Shown: positions 16,309 through 32,729 of the stretch, one piece after another
Position numbering within the stretch: the first letter of the stretch is position 1
How the letters are laid out: every line of letters starts with the position of its first letter
Source: Escherichia phage HK578
Direction: 5' to 3' (one strand)
Length of the DNA: 43,741 bases
Sequence record: NC_019724.1
Notes under the pieces: generated by a model
Database searches by the model: none
Told to the model about the DNA's origin: nothing
What the model saw: only the letters and a program-made list of their open reading frames with translations
Made by a program: the position numbers and the translations under genes

Positions 16309-16916
16309 CCACGTTTAAATTGTACGGCGTCTTAGGGCGTCGTTTTGGTAAAGTGCATAAGCTGGACTGCTTCACACCGGGCGAAGGCATCACAGGCCTG
16401 TGCGTGAAGCTGCCAGGGTTACAAGACTTTTTAATGTCGGCCCACCTGGAAAATATTATGTTCAAGGTGCGCAAGGGCAATCACACAATGACCGGATACG
16501 ACGAGTTGGGAGAGTTCCACGGCGACCGCGTAGTGACCATCGCACCGGTTATGACCGGCGCAAAACGCGGACTAGGCCAATTACTGGCGGGAGTAGCCAT
16601 CGTGGTGGCGTCGTTCTACACCGGCGGGCTTGCTACTGCCGCTTTTGGTGCTTCCGCCGCGACCGCTGCCGCGATTGGTACGGCGACGTTCTCGTTCGGG
16701 ATGTCGATGGCGCTGGGTGGCGTTATGCAATTGCTGTCGCCACAGCCGAAAGGATTGCAGACACGGCAGGATGTGGACAACAAGGCGTCTTATGCGTTCG
16801 GCGGACCGGTAAACACAACCGCGCAAGGTACGGCACTTGGTGTATTATGGGGCGAGCGTGAGATCGGCGGCGCTATTATTTCCGCCGGAATCGTAACAGA
16901 GGATTTGAACGAATGA
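16299..16916 (+). CDS. tail assembly protein I-like
   Basis: 205 aa with Gly/Ala-rich hydrophobic C-terminal half; between K-like and J-like genes. Confidence 0.6.
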   Translation: MAMTTFKLYGVLGRRFGKVHKLDCFTPGEGITGLCVKLPGLQDFLMSAHLENIMFKVRKGNHTMTGYDELGEFHGDRVVTIAPVMTGAKRGLGQLLAGVAIVVASFYTGGLATAAFGASAATAAAIGTATFSFGMSMALGGVMQLLSPQPKGLQTRQDVDNKASYAFGGPVNTTAQGTALGVLWGEREIGGAIISAGIVTEDLNE

Positions 16917-19900
16917 CGATTGTCTACGACGTCACAGGCCATAAAGGCGGCGGTGGCAAACAGCACACCCCACAGGAGACACCAGATAGCCTGCATTCGC
17001 TGGCTAAAATCCGCATCTTGCTCGCACTGGGTGAAGGTGAGTTCGAAGGCATTCCCGACCCCAACGAATTACGGCAGCGCGTTTATTTGGACGGCACACC
17101 GATCCAGAACGCCGACCGATCCGAAAACTTCCCCGGCGCGCGCGTGGAGTTCCGCCCCGGCACACAGCACCAGGACGTGATTCACGGATTTTCCGCGGTG
17201 GAAAGCGAGCAAACCGTAGGCGTAAAACTGGAATACGGCACGCCGTGGGTGCGCCAGATTAACGACACCAGTCTTGACGCCGTGCGCATTCGCATCGGCA
17301 TTCCAGCCCTGTACACTAACGAAGATAATGGCGACCTGGTGGGCGGGCGCATCGACTATAAGATAGTTGTGTATACGGATAACGCCGACCCGCGTGAGTT
17401 CAGATTCGCCGCCGTTGGTAAAACAATGTCGCTATATGAGCGCGATCACCGCATCGAGCTACCGCCGAACGTTAACACCGGCTGGCGCGTGGAGGTGCAC
17501 CGCATAACGGCAGACTCCACATCGGCGAAAGTGGTTAATGATATCCGGGTGCAGTCCATCACTGAGATTATCGACGCCCGCCTGCGTTACCCGCTAACCG
17601 CGCTGTTGTTCGTGGAGTTCGACGCCAAAGCGTTCCAGAACATCCCGCGCGTGTCCATCAAGTGCAAAGGCCGCAAAGTTCTAATACCGAACAACTACGA
17701 CCCGATTAATCATACCTATTCCGGGGACTGGGATGGTACGTTTAAACGCGCCTGGACGGATAACCCTGCGTGGCACTGGTACGACATTTGTATTACTGAG
17801 CGCTTCGGCCTCGGTCGGCGTATCAAACCGCAAATGCTAAATCGATACGCGCTCTACCAGATTGCGCAGCGCTGCGATCAGTTGGTCAGCGACGGCAACG
17901 GTGGTCGCGAAATCCGCTTTAAGAATGATATGTACATTCAGTCACAGACGGATGCCTGGACCGTGCTTAAGGATTTGGCTGCCATCTTCGCCGGAATGAC
18001 CTGGTGGGGCAACCAGATGTTGAATATCGTCAGTGACCAACCGGTAGCCGCGGTGTCCCACACTATTACCAACGCATCTGTTATTGATGGGCGATTCGAC
18101 TACGCATCTGGCAGCCAGAAAACTCGCTATTCCACATTCGCGGTAGCATACGGCAATCCGAAAAACCACTATGATGACGCCATCGCAACGGGCCAGCGCG
18201 TCGAACTGGTGCGCCGCCATAAGATTAACCGTCTCGATATTACGGCGATCGGCTGTACGCGCGAATCCGAAGCGCAACGCCGGGGGCACTGGGCGCTAAT
18301 CTCAAACCAGCTTGACCAGCAAGTTAGTTTTAAGGTGGGCATGGAGGGGTTGTTCTTTATCCCTGGTAGCGTAGTTGCGATCGCAGATACTAATATTTCT
18401 GGCGGATTCGAGACTCGGGGTGGGCGTCTATTGTCGGACCCCGGCACGCGTATCGTGCTGAACACAGACAGCGAAATCACATTCCGCCCCGGCGATAAGT
18501 TCCTGGTCCGCACAGATAGCGGAAATGTTGAGACTCGCGAGATCGCCAGCGTCAACGGTAACAAGGTAACGCTAAAAACCGCACTGGATGCCGACCCGAT
18601 CCCCGATCAGCCGTTTTGCGTTGACGGGAATGATATCCAGTTGCAAAAATTCCGCATCACCGATCTGGAATATGACGACTCTACGAGCACTTTCTCGGTG
18701 CGCGGGATTGAATATAACGATAGCAAATATGATGCCGTTGATAATGGCGCGCGCCTAGACCCGGGCATCTTTACGCAAGTGCCGGACGGTGTAATGAAGG
18801 GGCCAGAATCCGTGACCATAACCCCGTCGCAGATTTCAACGCAAGGCCAGCTAATCACCAACGTGGATATTGTATTCCCTCCGGTGAAGGATGCCGTGGT
18901 GTATGAAATCCAGTGGCGACGTACCAGCTTGCAGAATATGGAAATCCAGTGGGGAAACGACTGGGTGAACATCCCACGCACGGCATCAAACGGTGCGCAC
19001 ATCCATAACGTGTTTTCCGGTAACTATCAGGCACGCGTCCGCGCGATCGGTATGGGGGAGATTTCATCCCCGTGGGTGTCTTCCGAGATCACGCCGGTGG
19101 AAGGTCGCCTCGGCGGGCTTAACGCACCTATCATCACCAACGCGATTTCTGGCCTTCACCAGATTTTGTGGAAGTGGAACCACAACAACGCCGCGACGGA
19201 TATTTCATACACCGAGCTTGAAGTGCGCAAGACGGGCGAGACGGAATGGAAATTCCTGTCCAACGTCCCATATCCTGGCGCGGAGTACGCGCAAACGTCG
19301 CTGGAGTTCGGCATATACCAGCAGTTGCGCGCCCGTGTAGCGGATAAAATCGGCAACCTGTCGGACTGGTCAGCCCCGTTCGAAGGCCAAGTGAGTGACA
19401 AAGTTGACGAGTACATGAAGGGACTTGATGACGAGTTCTTGACTTCCGAGGATGGTAAACACTTCCAGGAAGCTATTAACACGATCCCGCAAGGCATTTA
19501 CGAGGCGATGCTCACTGACGCGCAGCAATTATTTAACGCCCGTGCCGAGTACAAAGGGATTTACGCAGAAATCAAGGTGGCTTATAACGTAGCCGCGGAT
19601 GCCCACCAGGCAGTAGCACAACTGGAGACGTTGATCGGCTCGCGCCTTGATGACGCGGAAGCATCAATCCACACGTTGCAGACCGCGCAAAGCACGCATG
19701 AACAAGCGTTCGCCCAGTACCAGCAAACTGTTGCCGCTAAGTTCGCCGATCAGGAAGCCGCCATCCAGTCAGTGCAAACGGCAACGGCGGATGTAGCTGG
19801 CGCGCTGGCGGAGTACAAGACCCAGGTCGCGGCACAGTTCGGTCAGCAGTCCGCCGCAATCGAGCAGAAGATGACGTCTTCGTTTAACCACTCTGGTGGT

Positions 19901-20365
19901 AGCGCCACATACAGCCTGAAGGCTGGCGTGACGTATAACGGGACTTACTACGATGCGGGTATGCAGCTTTCCGTAGTGGCGTCGGGCAGCGCGGTTAAAT
20001 CGCGTATCGCGTTCAAGGCGGACCAGTTCTACATAATGCATCCGTCTAATGGGTCGCTTTCGTCGGCGTTCATTGTTGACGGTGGGCAGGTGTATATTGA
20101 CACGGCACGCATCAAGGATGCGTCAATCAACTTCGCACAGATCACGGACACGCTGCAATCAAACAACTTCGCTTCCGGGTCGCGCGGATGGCGCATCCAG
20201 AAGGGCGGCGCTGCGGAGTTTAACGAAGTAACGGTCCGCGGCAGGCTGTACGCTGATAGTGGTGATTTTGCTTTTAACGGAATAAACAACACCGTGCAAA
20301 TTAACGGGAATGGGGTGACGGTTAACCTGCCTGGAGGAGGGAGGGTTGTATTAGGTACATTCTGA
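16913..20365 (+). CDS. host specificity / central tail fiber protein (J-like)
   Basis: 1150 aa, last and largest gene of the lambda-like tail tip block. Confidence 0.8.
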   Translation: MTIVYDVTGHKGGGGKQHTPQETPDSLHSLAKIRILLALGEGEFEGIPDPNELRQRVYLDGTPIQNADRSENFPGARVEFRPGTQHQDVIHGFSAVESEQTVGVKLEYGTPWVRQINDTSLDAVRIRIGIPALYTNEDNGDLVGGRIDYKIVVYTDNADPREFRFAAVGKTMSLYERDHRIELPPNVNTGWRVEVHRITADSTSAKVVNDIRVQSITEIIDARLRYPLTALLFVEFDAKAFQNIPRVSIKCKGRKVLIPNNYDPINHTYSGDWDGTFKRAWTDNPAWHWYDICITERFGLGRRIKPQMLNRYALYQIAQRCDQLVSDGNGGREIRFKNDMYIQSQTDAWTVLKDLAAIFAGMTWWGNQMLNIVSDQPVAAVSHTITNASVIDGRFDYASGSQKTRYSTFAVAYGNPKNHYDDAIATGQRVELVRRHKINRLDITAIGCTRESEAQRRGHWALISNQLDQQVSFKVGMEGLFFIPGSVVAIADTNISGGFETRGGRLLSDPGTRIVLNTDSEITFRPGDKFLVRTDSGNVETREIASVNGNKVTLKTALDADPIPDQPFCVDGNDIQLQKFRITDLEYDDSTSTFSVRGIEYNDSKYDAVDNGARLDPGIFTQVPDGVMKGPESVTITPSQISTQGQLITNVDIVFPPVKDAVVYEIQWRRTSLQNMEIQWGNDWVNIPRTASNGAHIHNVFSGNYQARVRAIGMGEISSPWVSSEITPVEGRLGGLNAPIITNAISGLHQILWKWNHNNAATDISYTELEVRKTGETEWKFLSNVPYPGAEYAQTSLEFGIYQQLRARVADKIGNLSDWSAPFEGQVSDKVDEYMKGLDDEFLTSEDGKHFQEAINTIPQGIYEAMLTDAQQLFNARAEYKGIYAEIKVAYNVAADAHQAVAQLETLIGSRLDDAEASIHTLQTAQSTHEQAFAQYQQTVAAKFADQEAAIQSVQTATADVAGALAEYKTQVAAQFGQQSAAIEQKMTSSFNHSGGSATYSLKAGVTYNGTYYDAGMQLSVVASGSAVKSRIAFKADQFYIMHPSNGSLSSAFIVDGGQVYIDTARIKDASINFAQITDTLQSNNFASGSRGWRIQKGGAAEFNEVTVRGRLYADSGDFAFNGINNTVQINGNGVTVNLPGGGRVVLGTF

Positions 20366-20369
20366 AACT

Positions 20370-20389
20370 AAAGCCCCGCCAGGGGCTTT
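20370..20389. terminator. bidirectional intrinsic terminator
   Basis: AAAGCCCC-gcca-GGGGCTTT between convergent J-like gene (+) and 20388..21320 (-). Confidence 0.6.
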
Positions 20390-21320
20390 AGTACATGTTG
20401 GGGAGGTACGGCAGCGGAGTTGGGATCGTAACGTCGGGTCTGTTGCCGATTTCGTACCTTACAATTCGTGAGCCAGTTCCCGACCTTACATATCCGCCGC
20501 TCATAACCACGCCTTTGTTTCTTAGTTCCTTGTAGGCGGGTATAGCCCTTGTATTGAACCCACACCTTAGTATTGGGAAGTAGGAGTCTCCAATATACTG
20601 ATTGCTACCCGACAGACTTATAAACCCAGACACAATAAGTGGTCTGGTAACTGTTGAAAGTGTACAGGCGCCTTTGTGGTTAAATATGTTTAACCCCGGC
20701 CCCGGCACGGGCGCAACCATCTGGAAAATAACCAAATCCATAGTAACACTTCCGGGTGTGTGCCCGGTATCATTTGTGTTTATGTTTGTGCATATCAACC
20801 GATTAACACCGTCGTACTCAACTGAAACACCAGAATTATCCCACCTGCCGAACGGTATGCCGTATATTGGAAGGGTGTAACTATCATGGAATGATATAGT
20901 TTGAGCAAATTTGCAGACAAGCAACCTGTCAGTTGTGGTTATCGATGTGAAATCCGTGCTGTCGGCAACGTAAAGCCCCTGCCCTGATGACCTAAGAACC
21001 TCAACTACAGTCCCTGAAAACTGCGTTACGCGGTCTGGATAGCCGTTCTCATAGCCAATAGATATTGTTCCGCTGGATTCTGTTGAAGAAAAGCCCTTTA
21101 TATAATAAACCTCAACACCACGATCTAGTTCGAAGGAGTATGCGCCATTGTTCGGCAGAAGAAACCTTGAAGCCCCTTCATTACCTTGAATAGGGAATGA
21201 CTTGCTAAACCCGCCACTTGAAACATTGAAGTTCCCCGCAAAATTCAAGGCACGCATACCCGCGGTGATTGTCATCGGGTTGCGTCCGTCATTAAGATCA
21301 ATGTAGATACCTTGTGCCAT
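20388..21320 (-). CDS. hypothetical Ser/Gly/Thr-rich protein (candidate adhesin/receptor-binding protein)
   Basis: 310 aa from ATG 21320 ([12 protein letters not shown]...) with SD GGGAG; start overlaps stop of upstream lipoprotein gene (TAATG); opposite strand to tail genes; function inferred from context only. Confidence 0.55.
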   Translation of the reverse strand: MAQGIYIDLNDGRNPMTITAGMRALNFAGNFNVSSGGFSKSFPIQGNEGASRFLLPNNGAYSFELDRGVEVYYIKGFSSTESSGTISIGYENGYPDRVTQFSGTVVEVLRSSGQGLYVADSTDFTSITTTDRLLVCKFAQTISFHDSYTLPIYGIPFGRWDNSGVSVEYDGVNRLICTNINTNDTGHTPGSVTMDLVIFQMVAPVPGPGLNIFNHKGACTLSTVTRPLIVSGFISLSGSNQYIGDSYFPILRCGFNTRAIPAYKELRNKGVVMSGGYVRSGTGSRIVRYEIGNRPDVTIPTPLPYLPNMY

Positions 21321-21550
21321 TAGTTCCACTCCCGAGAGCCATAATCACGAACTGAGCCACCATGCCCTTTAATTCCGTCATAACGAATATCAACTTCACC
21401 CGCCGGAACAACTACACCGCCTTTCCATTTAGCTACACATACGCCGCTTGCTTGCGTCGCGCACCAACCATCCGTACGCGGGCCAGAAGAGCAACCAACA
21501 GCCATGACTACTATCGCGGCAATGATTGCAGATTTGATTAAAGTTTTCAT
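21320..21550 (-). CDS. small lipoprotein (candidate superinfection-exclusion protein)
   Basis: 76 aa from ATG 21550 with SD AGGAGA; signal peptide [20 protein letters not shown] with lipobox-like AVGC; mature part has 3 Cys. Confidence 0.6.
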
Positions 21551-21630
21551 GGTATCATCTCCTGTATTAGGTTGAGTTTTAGTATTGCACCACTCAACCA
21601 AGAATGCAACCAATTTATGAGGATTCAGCT

Positions 21631-23472
21631 ATGGCAGCGGGTACACTATCCGTAACGAATAACAGCAAGGCGGTTGTCGGTGTAGGAACGACGTTTACCG
21701 CGTTTAATGCTGGCGACTTTTTATCGCTGGTAGTCGGGCAAGTGCCCTACACTGTTGCGATCGCGTCCGTCGAAAGCGACACCGCGCTTACGTTGGTGCT
21801 GCCGTTCGACGGCCCAACGGCAACTGGCCTCGCGTGGGATGGCGTTAAGCGCGATACCATGTCGCTGGCAACGATGGGTGTAACCGTACAGGCACAGAAA
21901 GCGTTGCGCTTGATGATCGCGGACGAAAACAACTGGCGCGCAATCTTCGGAGACGAAGAAGAGATCACGGTAACGCTGCCGAACGGGCAAGTTATGCAGG
22001 GTATGTCGTGGGGCTATCTGTCGCAATTGCTGAAGGAAGTTGACCCCGTTGAAATGCGCAACCTGCAACAACAAGCCACTACCGCGAAGAACGACGCCGT
22101 TACCGCAAAGAATCAAGCCGTTACCGCGAAGAACGACGCCGTTACCGCGAAAACGGGCGCGGAGACGGCGCGCGACCAGGCTAATACCGCAAAGACCGGT
22201 GCAGAGACGGCGCGCGACCAGGCTAATACCGCGAAAACGGGCGCGGAGACAGCACGGGATCAATCGCTGACTTACCGTAACCAGGCCGAGCAATTTGCTA
22301 ACAGCGTTAATCCGGATAACATTCTGGATCAAGTCGGTGTTGGTGCAAACCCGCGGCACTTACCGGATATTAACGCGCCTGTGAAGGGATTCTGCCGTAT
22401 TATCGCGGGTCAAACCGCGGGGGCGAATGGGTTTAGCGGGGCGGGATGGATCGCCGGTTACGACGGCAGCCAGTCTTATACCGGTATGTTTGTGCAGCCC
22501 GACGGTAACCGCATTTTCGCAGGCGGAAAATCACCAGCTATCGCTGGCGGGTTGTGGCAGTGGCATGAGGTGCCGACTATAGATCGAGCTAATACATTTA
22601 CGCAATCGCAAGAAATTTTAGCGTCATACCCGGGCCTTGAACTGACAACAACCGCGCTCAATAACAACAATCTAGGGAAGACAATCCTTATTGAAAATGA
22701 TGCGGGCGATGCTCTTAACTTTTTCTACAAGATGCTCGACGACGACACGGGACGTTACACCATTAGACTACCGAAGCCTGGGTATAAGACGACGATGACG
22801 ATCGGGCTTGACGGAGGGTTGGCTCCAAACGGCAACTCGTTTAACATCGGTGCCGTTCAAGGATTGGACTTCAGTGTCGGGCAGCAAGGGTGGCGCGCGG
22901 TGGGCGGTGCGTGGACTAATGGCCCAACCAGCGGCAATCTGTTCGGGGCAGTATTCACCCATGCGGTGCAGGGTCTGAATGTCGGGGGGTATGACGCTAA
23001 TGGCACGGATAACCACTGGTTTATACAGCGCTTTTACGACACGTCGGCGAATATCTTTACGCGCGTGCAAGTGAACGACTACCCGTGGGGTAACTGGTAT
23101 AAAGTCACCACGTCCGCTGTGTCGGATGAACGCCTGAAGGATATCAAGGGCAATCTGAATGTGGAGGGTGCGCTGGATAACATCAACCGCATGGAGTTTA
23201 AACTGTTCTCGTTTAAAAATGAGAAGTCAGAAAGCAAACAGCCTGTTACGCGTCGCGGTGTTATCAGCCAGCAGATCCGTCTTATTGATAAAGAGTACAC
23301 AACGGAAGTAGGCGGATTCTACCACCTGGACCAGACCCCGATGTTGTTAGATGGTCTGGCGGCAATCAAGGCTCTGCGCGCGCGTGACGAAGCAAATAAA
23401 GCTGAAATCGCGGAATTGAAAGCTGCCGTGGCGGAATTGAAAGCTGCCGTAGCGGCGCTGTCTAAAGCATAA
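21631..23472 (+). CDS. tail fiber protein with C-terminal intramolecular chaperone (S74-like) domain
   Basis: ATG 21631 with SD GAGGA; nine TA(K/R)xxAx heptads; SDERLKDIKG motif near C-terminus (auto-cleavage signature of S74 chaperone domains); C-terminal AELKAAV repeats. Confidence 0.75.
   Translation: MAAGTLSVTNNSKAVVGVGTTFTAFNAGDFLSLVVGQVPYTVAIASVESDTALTLVLPFDGPTATGLAWDGVKRDTMSLATMGVTVQAQKALRLMIADENNWRAIFGDEEEITVTLPNGQVMQGMSWGYLSQLLKEVDPVEMRNLQQQATTAKNDAVTAKNQAVTAKNDAVTAKTGAETARDQANTAKTGAETARDQANTAKTGAETARDQSLTYRNQAEQFANSVNPDNILDQVGVGANPRHLPDINAPVKGFCRIIAGQTAGANGFSGAGWIAGYDGSQSYTGMFVQPDGNRIFAGGKSPAIAGGLWQWHEVPTIDRANTFTQSQEILASYPGLELTTTALNNNNLGKTILIENDAGDALNFFYKMLDDDTGRYTIRLPKPGYKTTMTIGLDGGLAPNGNSFNIGAVQGLDFSVGQQGWRAVGGAWTNGPTSGNLFGAVFTHAVQGLNVGGYDANGTDNHWFIQRFYDTSANIFTRVQVNDYPWGNWYKVTTSAVSDERLKDIKGNLNVEGALDNINRMEFKLFSFKNEKSESKQPVTRRGVISQQIRLIDKEYTTEVGGFYHLDQTPMLLDGLAAIKALRARDEANKAEIAELKAAVAELKAAVAALSKA
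22081..22263 (+). repeat. in-frame tandem repeats inside tail fiber gene
   Basis: 3 x 21-nt units (TAKNDAV / TAKNQAV) followed by 3 x 42-nt units (TAKTGAETARDQAN), nearly identical at nucleotide level. Confidence 0.8.
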
Positions 23473-23476
23473 CGAG

Positions 23477-23499
23477 AAGGGGCCATGCGGCCCCTTTTT
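23477..23499. terminator. bidirectional intrinsic terminator
   Basis: AAGGGGCC-atgc-GGCCCCTT followed by TTT; between convergent tail fiber (+) and early leftward operon (-). Confidence 0.7.
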
Positions 23500-32006: not shown

Positions 32007-32729
32007 TTAACGGCGGCGACGTTTACGTGGTGCTTCGTCTTCGTCGTCTTCGTCCTCATCCTCATCGTCGCGCGGCTTACGACGTTTACGAGGTTTTTCA
32101 TCTTCGTCATCATCGCGGCGCTTGGACTTTTTGGACTTGCGCGGGCTTTCATCTTCGTCATCATCGCCCAGGTCTTCGTCGGAGCAAGAAGACCCGCCAC
32201 CGCCGAAGGCTTCACCGTCATCACGGAAGCGTAAACCCAGCAAGCCAGCACCGAGTCCCTTGCCGTTGGTATTGTTCCACGCCCAAATATCCAAGGACAC
32301 GTTGCAATAACAACCGGAGTAGATCTCCTGGCCTTCGATCTCGTCGCCTTCTACGGTCAGACCTTGTTCCGTCTGCTTCTCGCCGAGTGACGTTTGAATG
32401 ACCGGCTGTTTGAACGATTTGGCGTTGATGTACAACATGCCTTCGAATTCTTCGGTTACTTCGTCGCGCTCGTCACCGTCGCGAACTGCGCATTCCTTAG
32501 AATCCTGGGCGTAGTGGCGGTCCATCCACTTATCAGCATTCTTCTCGGATTTCAGCTTGTCGGTGAGCACTGCGCGCGCTGCCGCTTCCACTTTGTCCAC
32601 CTGCGGGTCTTCTTTATCAAGAAGAATCACTGCGCGGTATGCCGGTTTTTGTCCATCCTGTTTAGGGGTATCACGTTCCCAAATTTTAAGGAAACATACG
32701 CGCACATTTTTCAGGTTGACTTTAGCCAT
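32007..32729 (-). CDS. ssDNA-binding protein-like (DUF2815-type)
   Basis: ATG 32729 (MAKVNLKNVRVCF...) with SD GAGGAA; family assignment from memory of the N-terminal pattern and co-occurrence with exonuclease and PolA; highly charged C-terminal tail. Confidence 0.5.
   Translation of the reverse strand: MAKVNLKNVRVCFLKIWERDTPKQDGQKPAYRAVILLDKEDPQVDKVEAAARAVLTDKLKSEKNADKWMDRHYAQDSKECAVRDGDERDEVTEEFEGMLYINAKSFKQPVIQTSLGEKQTEQGLTVEGDEIEGQEIYSGCYCNVSLDIWAWNNTNGKGLGAGLLGLRFRDDGEAFGGGGSSCSDEDLGDDDEDESPRKSKKSKRRDDDEDEKPRKRRKPRDDEDEDEDDEDEAPRKRRRR

Follow-up and report, generated by a model that had tools for sequence, protein, structure and literature searches.

Heptad repeats in the lateral tail fibre gene of Escherichia phage HK578: a shaft of variable length, a module boundary and a C-terminal S74 chaperone domain

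The lateral tail fibre gene of Escherichia phage HK578 (Dhillonvirus) carries a run of in-frame tandem repeats between its conserved 5′ end and its distal domain, and the locus raises the question of what these repeats do in the protein and whether their number changes. An earlier note, made from the letters alone, had seen in them tandem heptads of a fibre that ends in an auto-chaperone, and this reading is largely supported. The explanation that we favor, at a probability of about 0.8, is that the repeats encode a ten-heptad coiled-coil shaft that varies in length by whole units and is the site of tip swaps, in a fibre that also carries a self-cleaving S74 chaperone. The architecture itself (anchor, shaft, tip and S74 chaperone) has already been published for Dhillonvirus, and no new mechanism is involved.

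The fibre gene and its heptad array

Within the window (the whole stretch of DNA analyzed, 43,741 nt), the fibre gene occupies 21631..23472 of the plus strand and encodes 613 aa plus a stop, for a full-length protein of 65.7 kDa. The protein is identical to YP_007112632.1 (613 aa), the "tail fiber" of HK578, and the best PHROG profile was the tail fibre family phrog_1980 (E 4.6e-117). The gene lies downstream of gpJ (16913-20365) and of a variable receptor-binding-protein locus. This position is common to the BASEL Dhillonvirus/Drexlerviridae fibres (RuthEpting Bas85 Gp29, JakobBernoulli Bas07 Gp36 and TheodorHerzl Bas14), which also share with HK578 an N-terminal anchor, a coiled-coil shaft, a variable tip and a C-terminal intramolecular chaperone (IMC); the fibres of TheodorHerzl and KarlBarth are direct homologues.

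On sequence grounds the true start is the ATG at 21631, with a GAGGA 7 nt upstream and with MAAGT as the N-terminal start in all fibre homologues. A program-listed start at 21604 was rejected, since that frame would overlap the upstream divergent gene and has no Shine-Dalgarno sequence, and 21631 is the start used in every homologue and in the GenBank protein. Also rejected was a minus-strand ORF overlapping the array (21721..22359), a by-product of the GC-rich repeat rather than a gene, for which the open frame is the sole support. The fibre gene is separated from the gene that converges on it from downstream by a terminator-like hairpin (23474..23499, plus strand) with an 11-pair stem followed by a T-run; this hairpin is 100% conserved in the metagenome contig L001.

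The array consists of ten in-frame 21-nt heptad units at 22081-22290, numbered h1 to h10 below. TRF resolved it into two arrays, one with a period of 21 nt at 22080-22155 (score 117 for 3.7 copies) and one with a period of 42 nt at 22143-22250 (score 181 for 2.6 copies). In agreement with these periods and with unit identity, h1-h3 form three 21-nt units (22081..22143, plus strand; TAKNDAV, TAKNQAV, TAKNDAV), and h4-h9 form three 42-nt units (22144..22269, plus strand), namely TAKTGAE-TARDQAN twice and then TAKTGAE-TARDQSL. A degenerate tenth heptad, h10 (TYRNQAE, 22270-22290, plus strand), is in frame with the rest. The earlier note had placed nine nearly identical TA(K/R)xxAx heptads at 22081-22263. 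The repeats are indeed there, but h9 extends 6 nt beyond that end (to 22269), the degenerate unit follows to 22290, and position 6 of h9 is Ser, not Ala.

Near-identity likewise holds for some pairs only: h1 and h3, h4 and h8, and h5 and h7 are each identical at 21/21 nt. The three 21-nt and three 42-nt units that had been called almost identical are all present, but h2 matches h1 at only 17/21 nt, the second half of the third 42-nt unit has diverged, and h6, whose peptide is that of h4 and h8, agrees with these two at just 16/21 nt and in 2/7 codons. Because its synonymous divergence from both is saturated, some units must be old or imported, and the array is not entirely the product of recent duplication.

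The repetition nevertheless exceeds chance, and the observation of repeats is confirmed. Given the peptide and the codon usage of the phage, full codon identity of a unit pair has a probability of ~0.5-1.8e-3, and it is seen three times. The array also contains perfect direct repeats of 29 nt (22162/22204), 27 nt (22080/22122) and 24 nt (22143/22227). The 43.7-kb window has no more than four families of direct repeats, of which the heptad array is the largest and an AELKAAV pair near the end of the gene is another.

These data bear on an account in which the repeats reflect protein-level constraint alone, with convergence on T-A-K-x-x-A-x, no dynamics at the level of DNA and an effectively fixed copy number. 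The conservation of the h4/h8 peptide in h6 despite its different codons is just what such constraint would produce, and the same heptad motif does occur in many unrelated tail-fibre PHROG families. Constraint on the peptide would hardly yield three unit pairs without a single synonymous difference (P ~1e-3 for each), and the whole-unit differences among relatives described below tell further against it; the account is largely refuted and must be regarded as very improbable.

Two known kinds of variable locus were also considered for the array. A diversity-generating retroelement target was rejected, as the units differ from one another by a mixture of substitutions (G>A, A>G, G>C, C>T) with no adenine specificity; no second, non-coding template copy was found among the direct repeats of the 43.7-kb window. 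A phase-variable on/off contingency locus was rejected as well, since the units are of 21 and 42 nt and in frame, and every observed variant keeps the frame.

A probable coiled-coil shaft that changes by whole heptads

In the AF2 monomer model, the array falls within one continuous α-helix predicted for aa 139-225 (22045..22305, plus strand), with a pLDDT of 68-82 across the array. The model has a mean pLDDT of 62, and its anchor and distal domain are poorly modelled (below 50 in many segments). The heptad register is regular, with Thr at position 1 and K/R at position 3 in 10/10 units, and Ala at positions 2 and 6 in 9/10 units each, so that small residues occupy both inferred core positions of the predicted helix. 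Taken together, the model and the register suggest that aa 139-225 form a trimeric coiled-coil shaft, in which the 87 residues would span ~13 nm. A published multimer model exists for a relative of the HK578 fibre. An all-Ala core is atypical of a stable coiled coil. A second shaft type (…QIKTDTQAIKDQTN…) exists among the homologues.

Coiled-coil surface fibres whose length is set by repeat number are known in the trimeric autotransporter adhesin stalks (NadA, YadA) and in the streptococcal M proteins. Those proteins belong to other organisms, have other functions and show no homology to the HK578 fibre, and the phage array differs further in that it also separates exchangeable modules.

Among the relatives of HK578, the number of heptads is clearly not constant. 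The 90% cluster of the HK578 fibre contains three proteins with 10, 9 and 8 heptads (613, 606 and 599 aa), which differ only in heptad number. A pair of metagenome contigs, L001 and L003, shows 0 mismatches in 5,395 nt and a single 21-nt gap in the array, that is, a difference of one unit in 5.4 kb. KarlBarth-type fibres of 667 and 674 aa are one heptad apart, and fibres with the same distal domain range from 574 aa in TheodorHerzl up to 652 aa in EC115. The earlier note had expected length variation of the shaft and had named comparison of repeat number among relatives as the check; the natural variants, from the cluster and the contig pair to whole-heptad steps across the genus, bear this out.

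The whole-heptad character of these steps is best seen when shaft length is measured from the anchor to the junction that follows the array. This conserved shaft-to-tip junction, which includes h10 (22270..22335, plus strand; QFANSVNPDNILDQV), carries in most homologues a YRNxAExF..(N/D)P motif that served as the distal anchor of the measurement. Ten different shaft lengths occur among ~100 homologues, the shortest being 16 aa and the longest 100 aa. Nine of the ten (16, 30, 44, 65, 72, 79, 86, 93 and 100 aa) are 2 mod 7, as a coiled-coil shaft changing by whole heptads would require; the sole exception is EC115, with 94 aa and an odd 8-residue unit.

It might be argued that the closest relatives differ in length only through artefacts of assembly or sequencing and that the array is stable. 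The proteins P0001 and P0122 do come from short-read metagenome assemblies, as do L001 and L003 (the 21-nt polymorphism derives from ERZ28639345 and ERZ27318409), and the odd unit of EC115 could be an error. Against this, the same whole-heptad differences recur in isolates from independent laboratories (TheodorHerzl, Over9000, BEK2-2, EC115, KarlBarth and others), and all length differences are in frame. An assembly error is also unlikely to lie behind the gap between L001 and L003, since the contig L003 has k=119, a length that exceeds, and so spans, the 63-nt sub-array. Artefact on this scale is scarcely credible as an explanation.

As to the means by which units are gained and lost, the perfect repeats of 24-29 nt, which lie 42 or 84 nt apart, could act as substrates for replication slippage or unequal recombination, and one of these processes is the probable cause of the variation in shaft length. 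Since one unit is 21 nt, or 7 codons, or one heptad, gain or loss preserves both the reading frame and the register and would therefore be tolerated; the shaft would lengthen or shorten in steps of ~1 nm. A literature search found no relevant work on slippage of heptads in tail fibres, and the published descriptions of the BASEL fibres include neither whole-heptad length steps nor repeat-mediated changes in copy number. The variants described here offer a sequence-level picture of side-fibre variation in a small siphovirus, in which change proceeds by whole heptads and repeats mark the sites of tip exchange.

Whether this variation is neutral is a separate matter. Shaft length could conceivably be an adaptive, contingency-like tuning of the fibre's reach to the depth of O-antigen or capsule. 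Shafts do range over 12 heptads (~12 nm), also among fibres with a common distal domain, and for the lateral fibres of Dhillonvirus it has been proposed that O-antigen is bound first, as a way through that barrier. Yet a unit that is a multiple of 3 nt provides no on/off switching, only three HK578-type alleles are known, and neutral tolerance of whole-heptad indels fits the same data, so that adaptive tuning seems unlikely. When viral and metagenome contigs were scanned for exact matches to the junction immediately after the array, none turned up, and a locus search with the distal domain found only relatives at 42-47% identity, leaving the HK578-type alleles at the three cluster members.

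The array as a boundary between anchor and tip

In the reading that we favor, the shaft has on one side an N-terminal anchor that is conserved across the genus and on the other a distal receptor-binding module that can be exchanged. The anchor (aa 1-138; 21631..22044, plus strand) is delimited by its DNA identity to Dhillonviruses and presumably attaches the fibre to the tail; against the PDB, aa 1-73 gave a weak match to 23gd_B. Fibre DNA matched 140 records, nearly all from Dhillonvirus-type coliphages, and the first ~474 nt of the query are 90-95% identical to most of them. The majority of the listed megablast alignments end at query 467-477, or 22070-22080 in the window, and the BASEL paper likewise limits conservation of the fibre gene to its far 5′ end.

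Beyond the anchor, megablast alignments with the listed relatives break off at the array or inside it (22070 to 22254). The comparison with L001 shows the opposite face of the same boundary: identity is 85.1% over 21631-22059, rises to 96.9% over 22228-23472 and returns to 86-90% downstream of the gene. The step between 21631-22059 (85.1%) and 22270-23472 (96.8%) has a Fisher P of 1e-15. By the evidence of these alignments, the array is a recombination boundary.

Fibres that differ in their tips carry the same 21- and 42-nt units, and shared units may well double as crossover points for the exchange of distal modules between phages. For the engineering of chimeric fibres, heptad boundaries are accordingly suggested as cut-and-paste points. 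A much stronger version of this idea would make the array an evolved dual adaptor, at once a hypermutable module of ~1-nm length steps pre-adapted to O-antigen or capsule depth and a recombination cassette for high-frequency tip swaps; this we consider doubtful.

In-frame repeats, likewise short and on either side of a variable receptor-binding module, have been proposed as recombination points in another phage protein, the antireceptor of Streptococcus thermophilus phages, where collagen-like repeats flank VR2. That antireceptor belongs to another phage lineage, and its repeats are Gly-X-Y collagen repeats rather than α-helical heptads.

On the distal side, a β-rich domain (22336..23121, plus strand), recognized by β-strands in the AF2 model, extends to Val497 and is the presumed receptor-binding tip. 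Compared with the BASEL fibres, HK578 has a distal module of its own, the nearest in GenBank being that of phage SM_A2 at 75% aa identity. The domain, poorly modelled in the monomer AF2 prediction, gave no convincing match to solved structures, and similarity to the T5 pb1 "bullet" (pb1 970-1263) was undetected with this model, in which pLDDT is below 50 in many segments.

The C-terminal S74 chaperone

The last 116 residues of the fibre (aa 498-613, 12.8 kDa; 23122..23469, plus strand) form a Peptidase_S74 intramolecular chaperone domain, which is predicted to be released after folding. Pfam PF13884 matched aa 507-559 (in the numbering of the 622-aa ORF) with 31.4 bits, above its gathering threshold of 22, and a profile built from 17 sequences matched the solved S74 domains 8hqz, 7dc3, 8jov, 3gud, 4uw8 and 6eu4, with E values of 4e-16 for 8hqz and 4e-6 for 4uw8; a single-sequence PDB search missed all S74 structures. 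The modelled chaperone also has the S74 fold, matching the MyRF ICA and endoNF.

At its start lies SDERLKDIKG (23122-23151), which the earlier note had taken as typical of such domains, and here its reading stands: S, D, R and K of SDERLK are invariant in the alignment of the 17 diverse sequences, and the 3gud chain starts at SDERHK. S-D-x-R-x-K occurs in 66 matched sequences (65 homologues plus the query). In the other 55 retrieved proteins the pattern was unmatched within the last 180 residues, and most of them carry a precomputed PF13884 match. SDERLK (23122..23139, plus strand) would supply a catalytic Ser498 and Lys503, together with Asp499 and Arg501, as predicted from this alignment. 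Equivalent Ser/Lys dyads are S911/K916 in endoNF, S587/K592 in MyRF and S1264/K1269 in T5 pb1 (PMC8326128, PMC4690869).

Where the fibre would be cut is suggested by these relatives. Mature T5 pb1 ends at Thr1263, with Ser1264 removed (PMC4690869), and MyRF is cut at P586|S587 (PMC8326128). In T5 pb1, K1F and MyRF alike, it is the released chaperone that carries the catalytic Ser, and a cut before Ser498 is therefore predicted, rather than after the Ser of SDERLK as had been proposed. The scissile bond would be V497|S498, between nt 23121 and 23122, and both cleavage and its position are argued here from analogy. Mechanistically, the C-terminal 116 residues would trimerise through a terminal coiled coil, template the folding of the distal domain and then cut themselves off by means of the Ser498/Lys503 dyad, leaving a mature fibre of 497 aa (52.9 kDa) with its tip unmasked. 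For the annotation of related phages, this would give the right start codon, a mature protein predicted to be 497 aa long and a chaperone predicted to be missing from virions.

T5 pb1, like HK578, has a C-terminal S74 chaperone bearing an S-x4-K dyad (removed after folding in pb1) and, as presumed for HK578, a trimeric coiled coil, but it is 1396 aa long and has a different shaft. The upstream passenger is a tailspike β-helix in endoNF (K1F, PDB 3GW6) and a transcription factor in the MyRF ICA (7DC3), as opposed to a fibre tip, and sequence identity of these two to the HK578 chaperone is ~12-20%.

The chaperones of MyRF and T5 contain a C-terminal or central trimeric coiled coil (PMC8326128, PMC4690869). 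In HK578 the presumed counterpart is a helix at aa 568-612 (23332..23466, plus strand), modelled with a pLDDT of 85-93 and with a canonical L/I/V heptad core. Within it lies the AELKAAV duplication reported by the earlier note, two 21-nt copies at 23410..23451 (plus strand) that are identical at 20/21 nt. By its sequence, the duplication would add one heptad to the chaperone's own coiled coil, and since it lies within the released chaperone, the mature fibre would stay unchanged. Among five proteins that share this chaperone domain, AELKAAV occurs once in P0046, P0048 and P0049 and twice in P0044 and P0045.

The lateral tail fibre gene

HK578 is the type phage of the genus Dhillonvirus, and many genomes of that genus match the window's first 20 kb at 91-94% identity. 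The gene at 21631-23469 encodes 613 aa that exactly match the deposited "tail fiber [Escherichia phage HK578]" (YP_007112632.1). By profile match this protein belongs to the tail-fibre family phrog_1980 (E 4.6e-117), and the BASEL papers name its gene as the Dhillonvirus lateral tail fibre. The real start is ATG 21631, since GAGGA lies 7 nt upstream, MAAGT begins all homologues, and the deposited protein has the same start. A start at 21604 (622 aa) in a mechanical ORF list was rejected as an artefact overlapping the extended upstream frame of a divergent lipoprotein gene. Residue numbers refer to the 613-aa protein; 9 is added for the frame of the earlier note.

Upstream lies a gpJ-type central fibre gene (16913-20365), and an opposite-strand gene pair (20388-21550) sits between it and the lateral fibre gene. 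The pair comprises a 313-aa DUF6453 protein (20388-21329, minus strand; Pfam E 1.7e-123), labelled "membrane protein" in PHROG, and a 76-aa protein of unknown function with a lipoprotein-like signal sequence (21323-21550, minus strand; phrog_4281); the latter ORF is listed as 21320..21613, with ATG 21550, preceded by AGGAGA, as its most likely start. The BASEL papers regard the opposite-strand variable locus at this position as the bona fide receptor-binding-protein locus. It is absent from the two metagenome contigs encoding close relatives of the fibre (L001, the closest, and L003), where 70 nt separate the end of the gpJ-like gene from the fibre gene, while SM_A2 and "rolling" carry other small genes in its place, including an annotated super-infection exclusion protein. 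Within the fibre itself, the sequence of the N-terminal anchor (aa 1-73; 21631-21849) matches PDB 23gd_B ("Distal tail protein gp20" in the deposited record) weakly but significantly (E 3e-4), which suggests that a solved relative of the fibre attachment domain exists.

A heptad array that varies in length

The earlier note described nine nearly identical in-frame heptads at 22081-22263. Read in frame from 22081, the successive 21-nt units are TAKNDAV, TAKNQAV, TAKNDAV, TAKTGAE and TARDQAN (h1-h5), then TAKTGAE, TARDQAN, TAKTGAE and TARDQSL (h6-h9, ending at 22269), and finally a degenerate tenth, TYRNQAE (h10, 22270-22290). The count of nine holds; the end coordinate should lie 6 nt further on, and position 6 of the ninth unit is Ser, not Ala. 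Near identity applies to h1 and h3, h4 and h8, and h5 and h7 (each 21/21) but not to other pairs: h2 is 17/21 identical to h1, and h6 has the same peptide as h4 and h8, yet shares two of seven codons with them. From the identical pairs arise perfect direct repeats 29 nt (22162/22204), 27 nt (22080/22122) and 24 nt (22143/22227) in length. Full codon identity of a unit pair has a probability of 0.5-1.8e-3, given the peptide and phage codon usage; because so improbable an event occurs three times, the DNA identity is not a by-product of protein sequence.

Three tracts are called by Tandem Repeats Finder: one of 21-nt period at 22080-22155 (3.7 copies, score 117), one of 42-nt period at 22143-22250 (2.6 copies, score 181), and a 21-nt pair at 23410-23455. 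The entire window holds only four direct-repeat families, with the heptad array the largest and the AELKAAV pair another. A second imperfect cluster, a TCGTC/TCATC-rich 31-nt family, lies at 32023-32167 (Tandem Repeats Finder matches at 32033-32096). The GenBank record of the related phage "rolling" carries repeat_region features at the matching position of its fibre gene.

Every unit of the array has Thr at position 1 and Lys or Arg at position 3, with Ala in 9 of the 10 units at position 2 and likewise at position 6. These two Ala positions are spaced 3/4, as are the a and d positions of a coiled coil. An AlphaFold2 monomer model (52-sequence alignment, mean pLDDT 62) has a single unbroken helix spanning the array (aa 139-225, pLDDT 68-82), a beta-rich distal region, and a confident C-terminal domain (pLDDT about 80-93) with a final helix at aa 568-612. 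Judging from the published model of a relative, the shaft would be a parallel trimer.

Copy number differs among relatives. The HK578 protein falls in a 90%-identity cluster of three proteins (613, 606 and 599 aa), which are collinear and differ in length solely inside the array (10, 9 and 8 heptads), where unit order differs too. The 606-aa and 599-aa genes come from different assemblies (L001, ERZ28639345; L003, ERZ27318409), and the two contigs are identical over 5,395 aligned positions except for one 21-nt gap, the loss of one of three tandem TAKTGAE units. Such a gap is what one would expect if adjacent identical units had slipped or exchanged unequally. Together with synonymous-site identity, this single-unit indel contradicts pure convergence at the peptide level. 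Some residual probability attaches to the length differences of the two contigs being assembly artefacts; this would leave without account the matching pattern in many independently sequenced isolates.

In the retrieved homologues, shaft lengths taken between two conserved landmarks, the DPVEM motif and the YRNxAExF junction, are 16, 30, 44, 65, 72, 79, 86, 93 and 100 aa, each leaving a remainder of 2 on division by 7. The sole exception to the whole-heptad rule is EC115 (P0010), at 94 aa: one additional Lys stands where two units meet (…TAK-KTGAE…), either a sequencing error or a real stutter of one residue. Fibres with the same distal domain cover much of the range (TheodorHerzl 574, Over9000 602 and EC115 652 aa), and the KarlBarth-like type comes in two sizes, 667 aa (10 units) and 674 aa (11 units). 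Scans of viral and metagenome contigs found no further HK578-type alleles. The length variation that the earlier note proposed is upheld, both by the cluster and by the L001/L003 indel, with slippage or recombination as its probable mechanism. At the standard coiled-coil rise of about 0.15 nm per residue, a heptad adds about 1 nm, and the observed lengths range over about 12 nm; adaptive tuning of shaft length has a low probability. Phase variation was rejected as a reading, as the units are in frame, and so was a diversity-generating retroelement, as differences between units are not adenine-specific.

The array as a module boundary

Another property of the array is that its units recur across fibres. 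HK578 and L001 each hold two synonymous TAKTGAE versions, ACCGCGAAAACGGGCGCGGAG and ACCGCAAAGACCGGTGCAGAG (22144-22164 and 22186-22206; L001 2070-2195), and EC115-type fibres, whose tip differs, also contain the 14-aa unit TAKTGAE-TARDQAN. Such units thus antedate any single array and are common to fibre lineages; the two TAKTGAE types were present before the current arrays and are reshuffled from one to another.

Between HK578 and L001, DNA identity is 85.1% over the anchor (365/429; 21631-22059), 63.7% and poorly alignable over most of the array (22060-22227), 96.9% from the array end to the gene end (22228-23472), 100% in the terminator region (23473-23497), and 86-90% in the downstream genes. 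The contrast between 21631-22059 and 22270-23472 (96.8%) gives a Fisher P of 1e-15. Because identity shifts so sharply across the array, a distal module has been exchanged, with a 5' crossover inside the array and a 3' end near the terminator. The latter is a strong terminator-like hairpin (GAGAAGGGGCC-ATGC-GGCCCCTTTTT; 23474-23499) between the convergent fibre and 191-aa phrog_10558 genes; it is 100% conserved in L001 and lies near the 3' edge of the exchanged block, which reaches into the start of the downstream gene. Among the matches listed, megablast alignments of HK578 with Dhillonvirus end at 22070-22080 for most records, and otherwise at 22109 (Over9000), 22198 (Sponge, StarDew, BEK2-2 and Zumzum) or 22254 (EC115), all at or within the array, consistent with distal-module exchange.

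Three elements make up the best-supported reading. The array would encode a coiled-coil shaft in which 21 nt, or seven codons, make one heptad, so that copy-number change would be harmless; perfect repeats of 24-29 nt would promote slippage or unequal recombination and yield shaft-length variants; and crossovers that exchange tips would fall in the unit types common to different fibres. The earlier observation is real and its interpretation in essence correct. The feature is an ordinary case of an already published fibre architecture, to which are added length steps strictly of whole heptads, a clean polymorphism of one unit, and a recombination boundary that has been mapped.

The C-terminal chaperone

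The SDERLKDIKG motif lies at 23122-23151, as first placed, and the C-terminal chaperone domain claimed with it is supported by Pfam Peptidase_S74 (31.4 bits; curated cut-off 22) and by profile matches to solved chaperones. In a profile of 17 diverse C-termini, the Ser, Asp, Arg and Lys of S-D-x-R-x-K are invariant, and this profile matches the T5-type L-shaped tail fibre (8hqz, 4e-16), the MyRF ICA domain (7dc3, 2e-10), 8jov, the GA-1 neck appendage chaperone (3gud, whose chain starts SDERHK), T5 pb1 (4uw8, 4e-6) and, weakly, endoNF (3gw6).

Published work puts the cut on the N-terminal side of the catalytic Ser. Mature T5 pb1 ends at Thr1263, and Ser1264, the catalytic residue that Lys1269 activates, departs with the chaperone; uncleaved pb1 cannot compete for receptor, so cleavage unmasks the tip (PMC4690869). 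MyRF was shown by mass spectrometry to be cut between P586 and S587, with S587/K592 equivalent to endoNF S911/K916, and its trimerisation is driven mainly by the C-terminal triple coiled coil (PMC8326128). The exception is phi29, where Ser is modelled as the final mature residue in weak density. The HK578 cut expected by analogy lies between Val497 and Ser498 (nt 23121/23122), and the "cleavage after the Ser" of the earlier note is probably one residue off. The predicted cut would yield a 497-aa, 52.9-kDa mature fibre and a released chaperone of 116 aa and 12.8 kDa.

The AELKAAV duplication reported near the C-terminus was also found, at 23410-23451, with copies 20/21 identical. The terminal helix of the chaperone has a canonical Leu/Ile/Val heptad core, in which the duplication is exactly one extra heptad. 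Among relatives with the same chaperone domain, AELKAAV occurs once in the homologues P0046, P0048 and P0049 (108-aa chaperone) and twice in P0044 and P0045 (115 aa), while others end earlier, with AELKAAIAELKK. Because its copy number differs among relatives, this repeat behaves like the shaft array; because it lies within the predicted discarded part, it should not alter the mature fibre.
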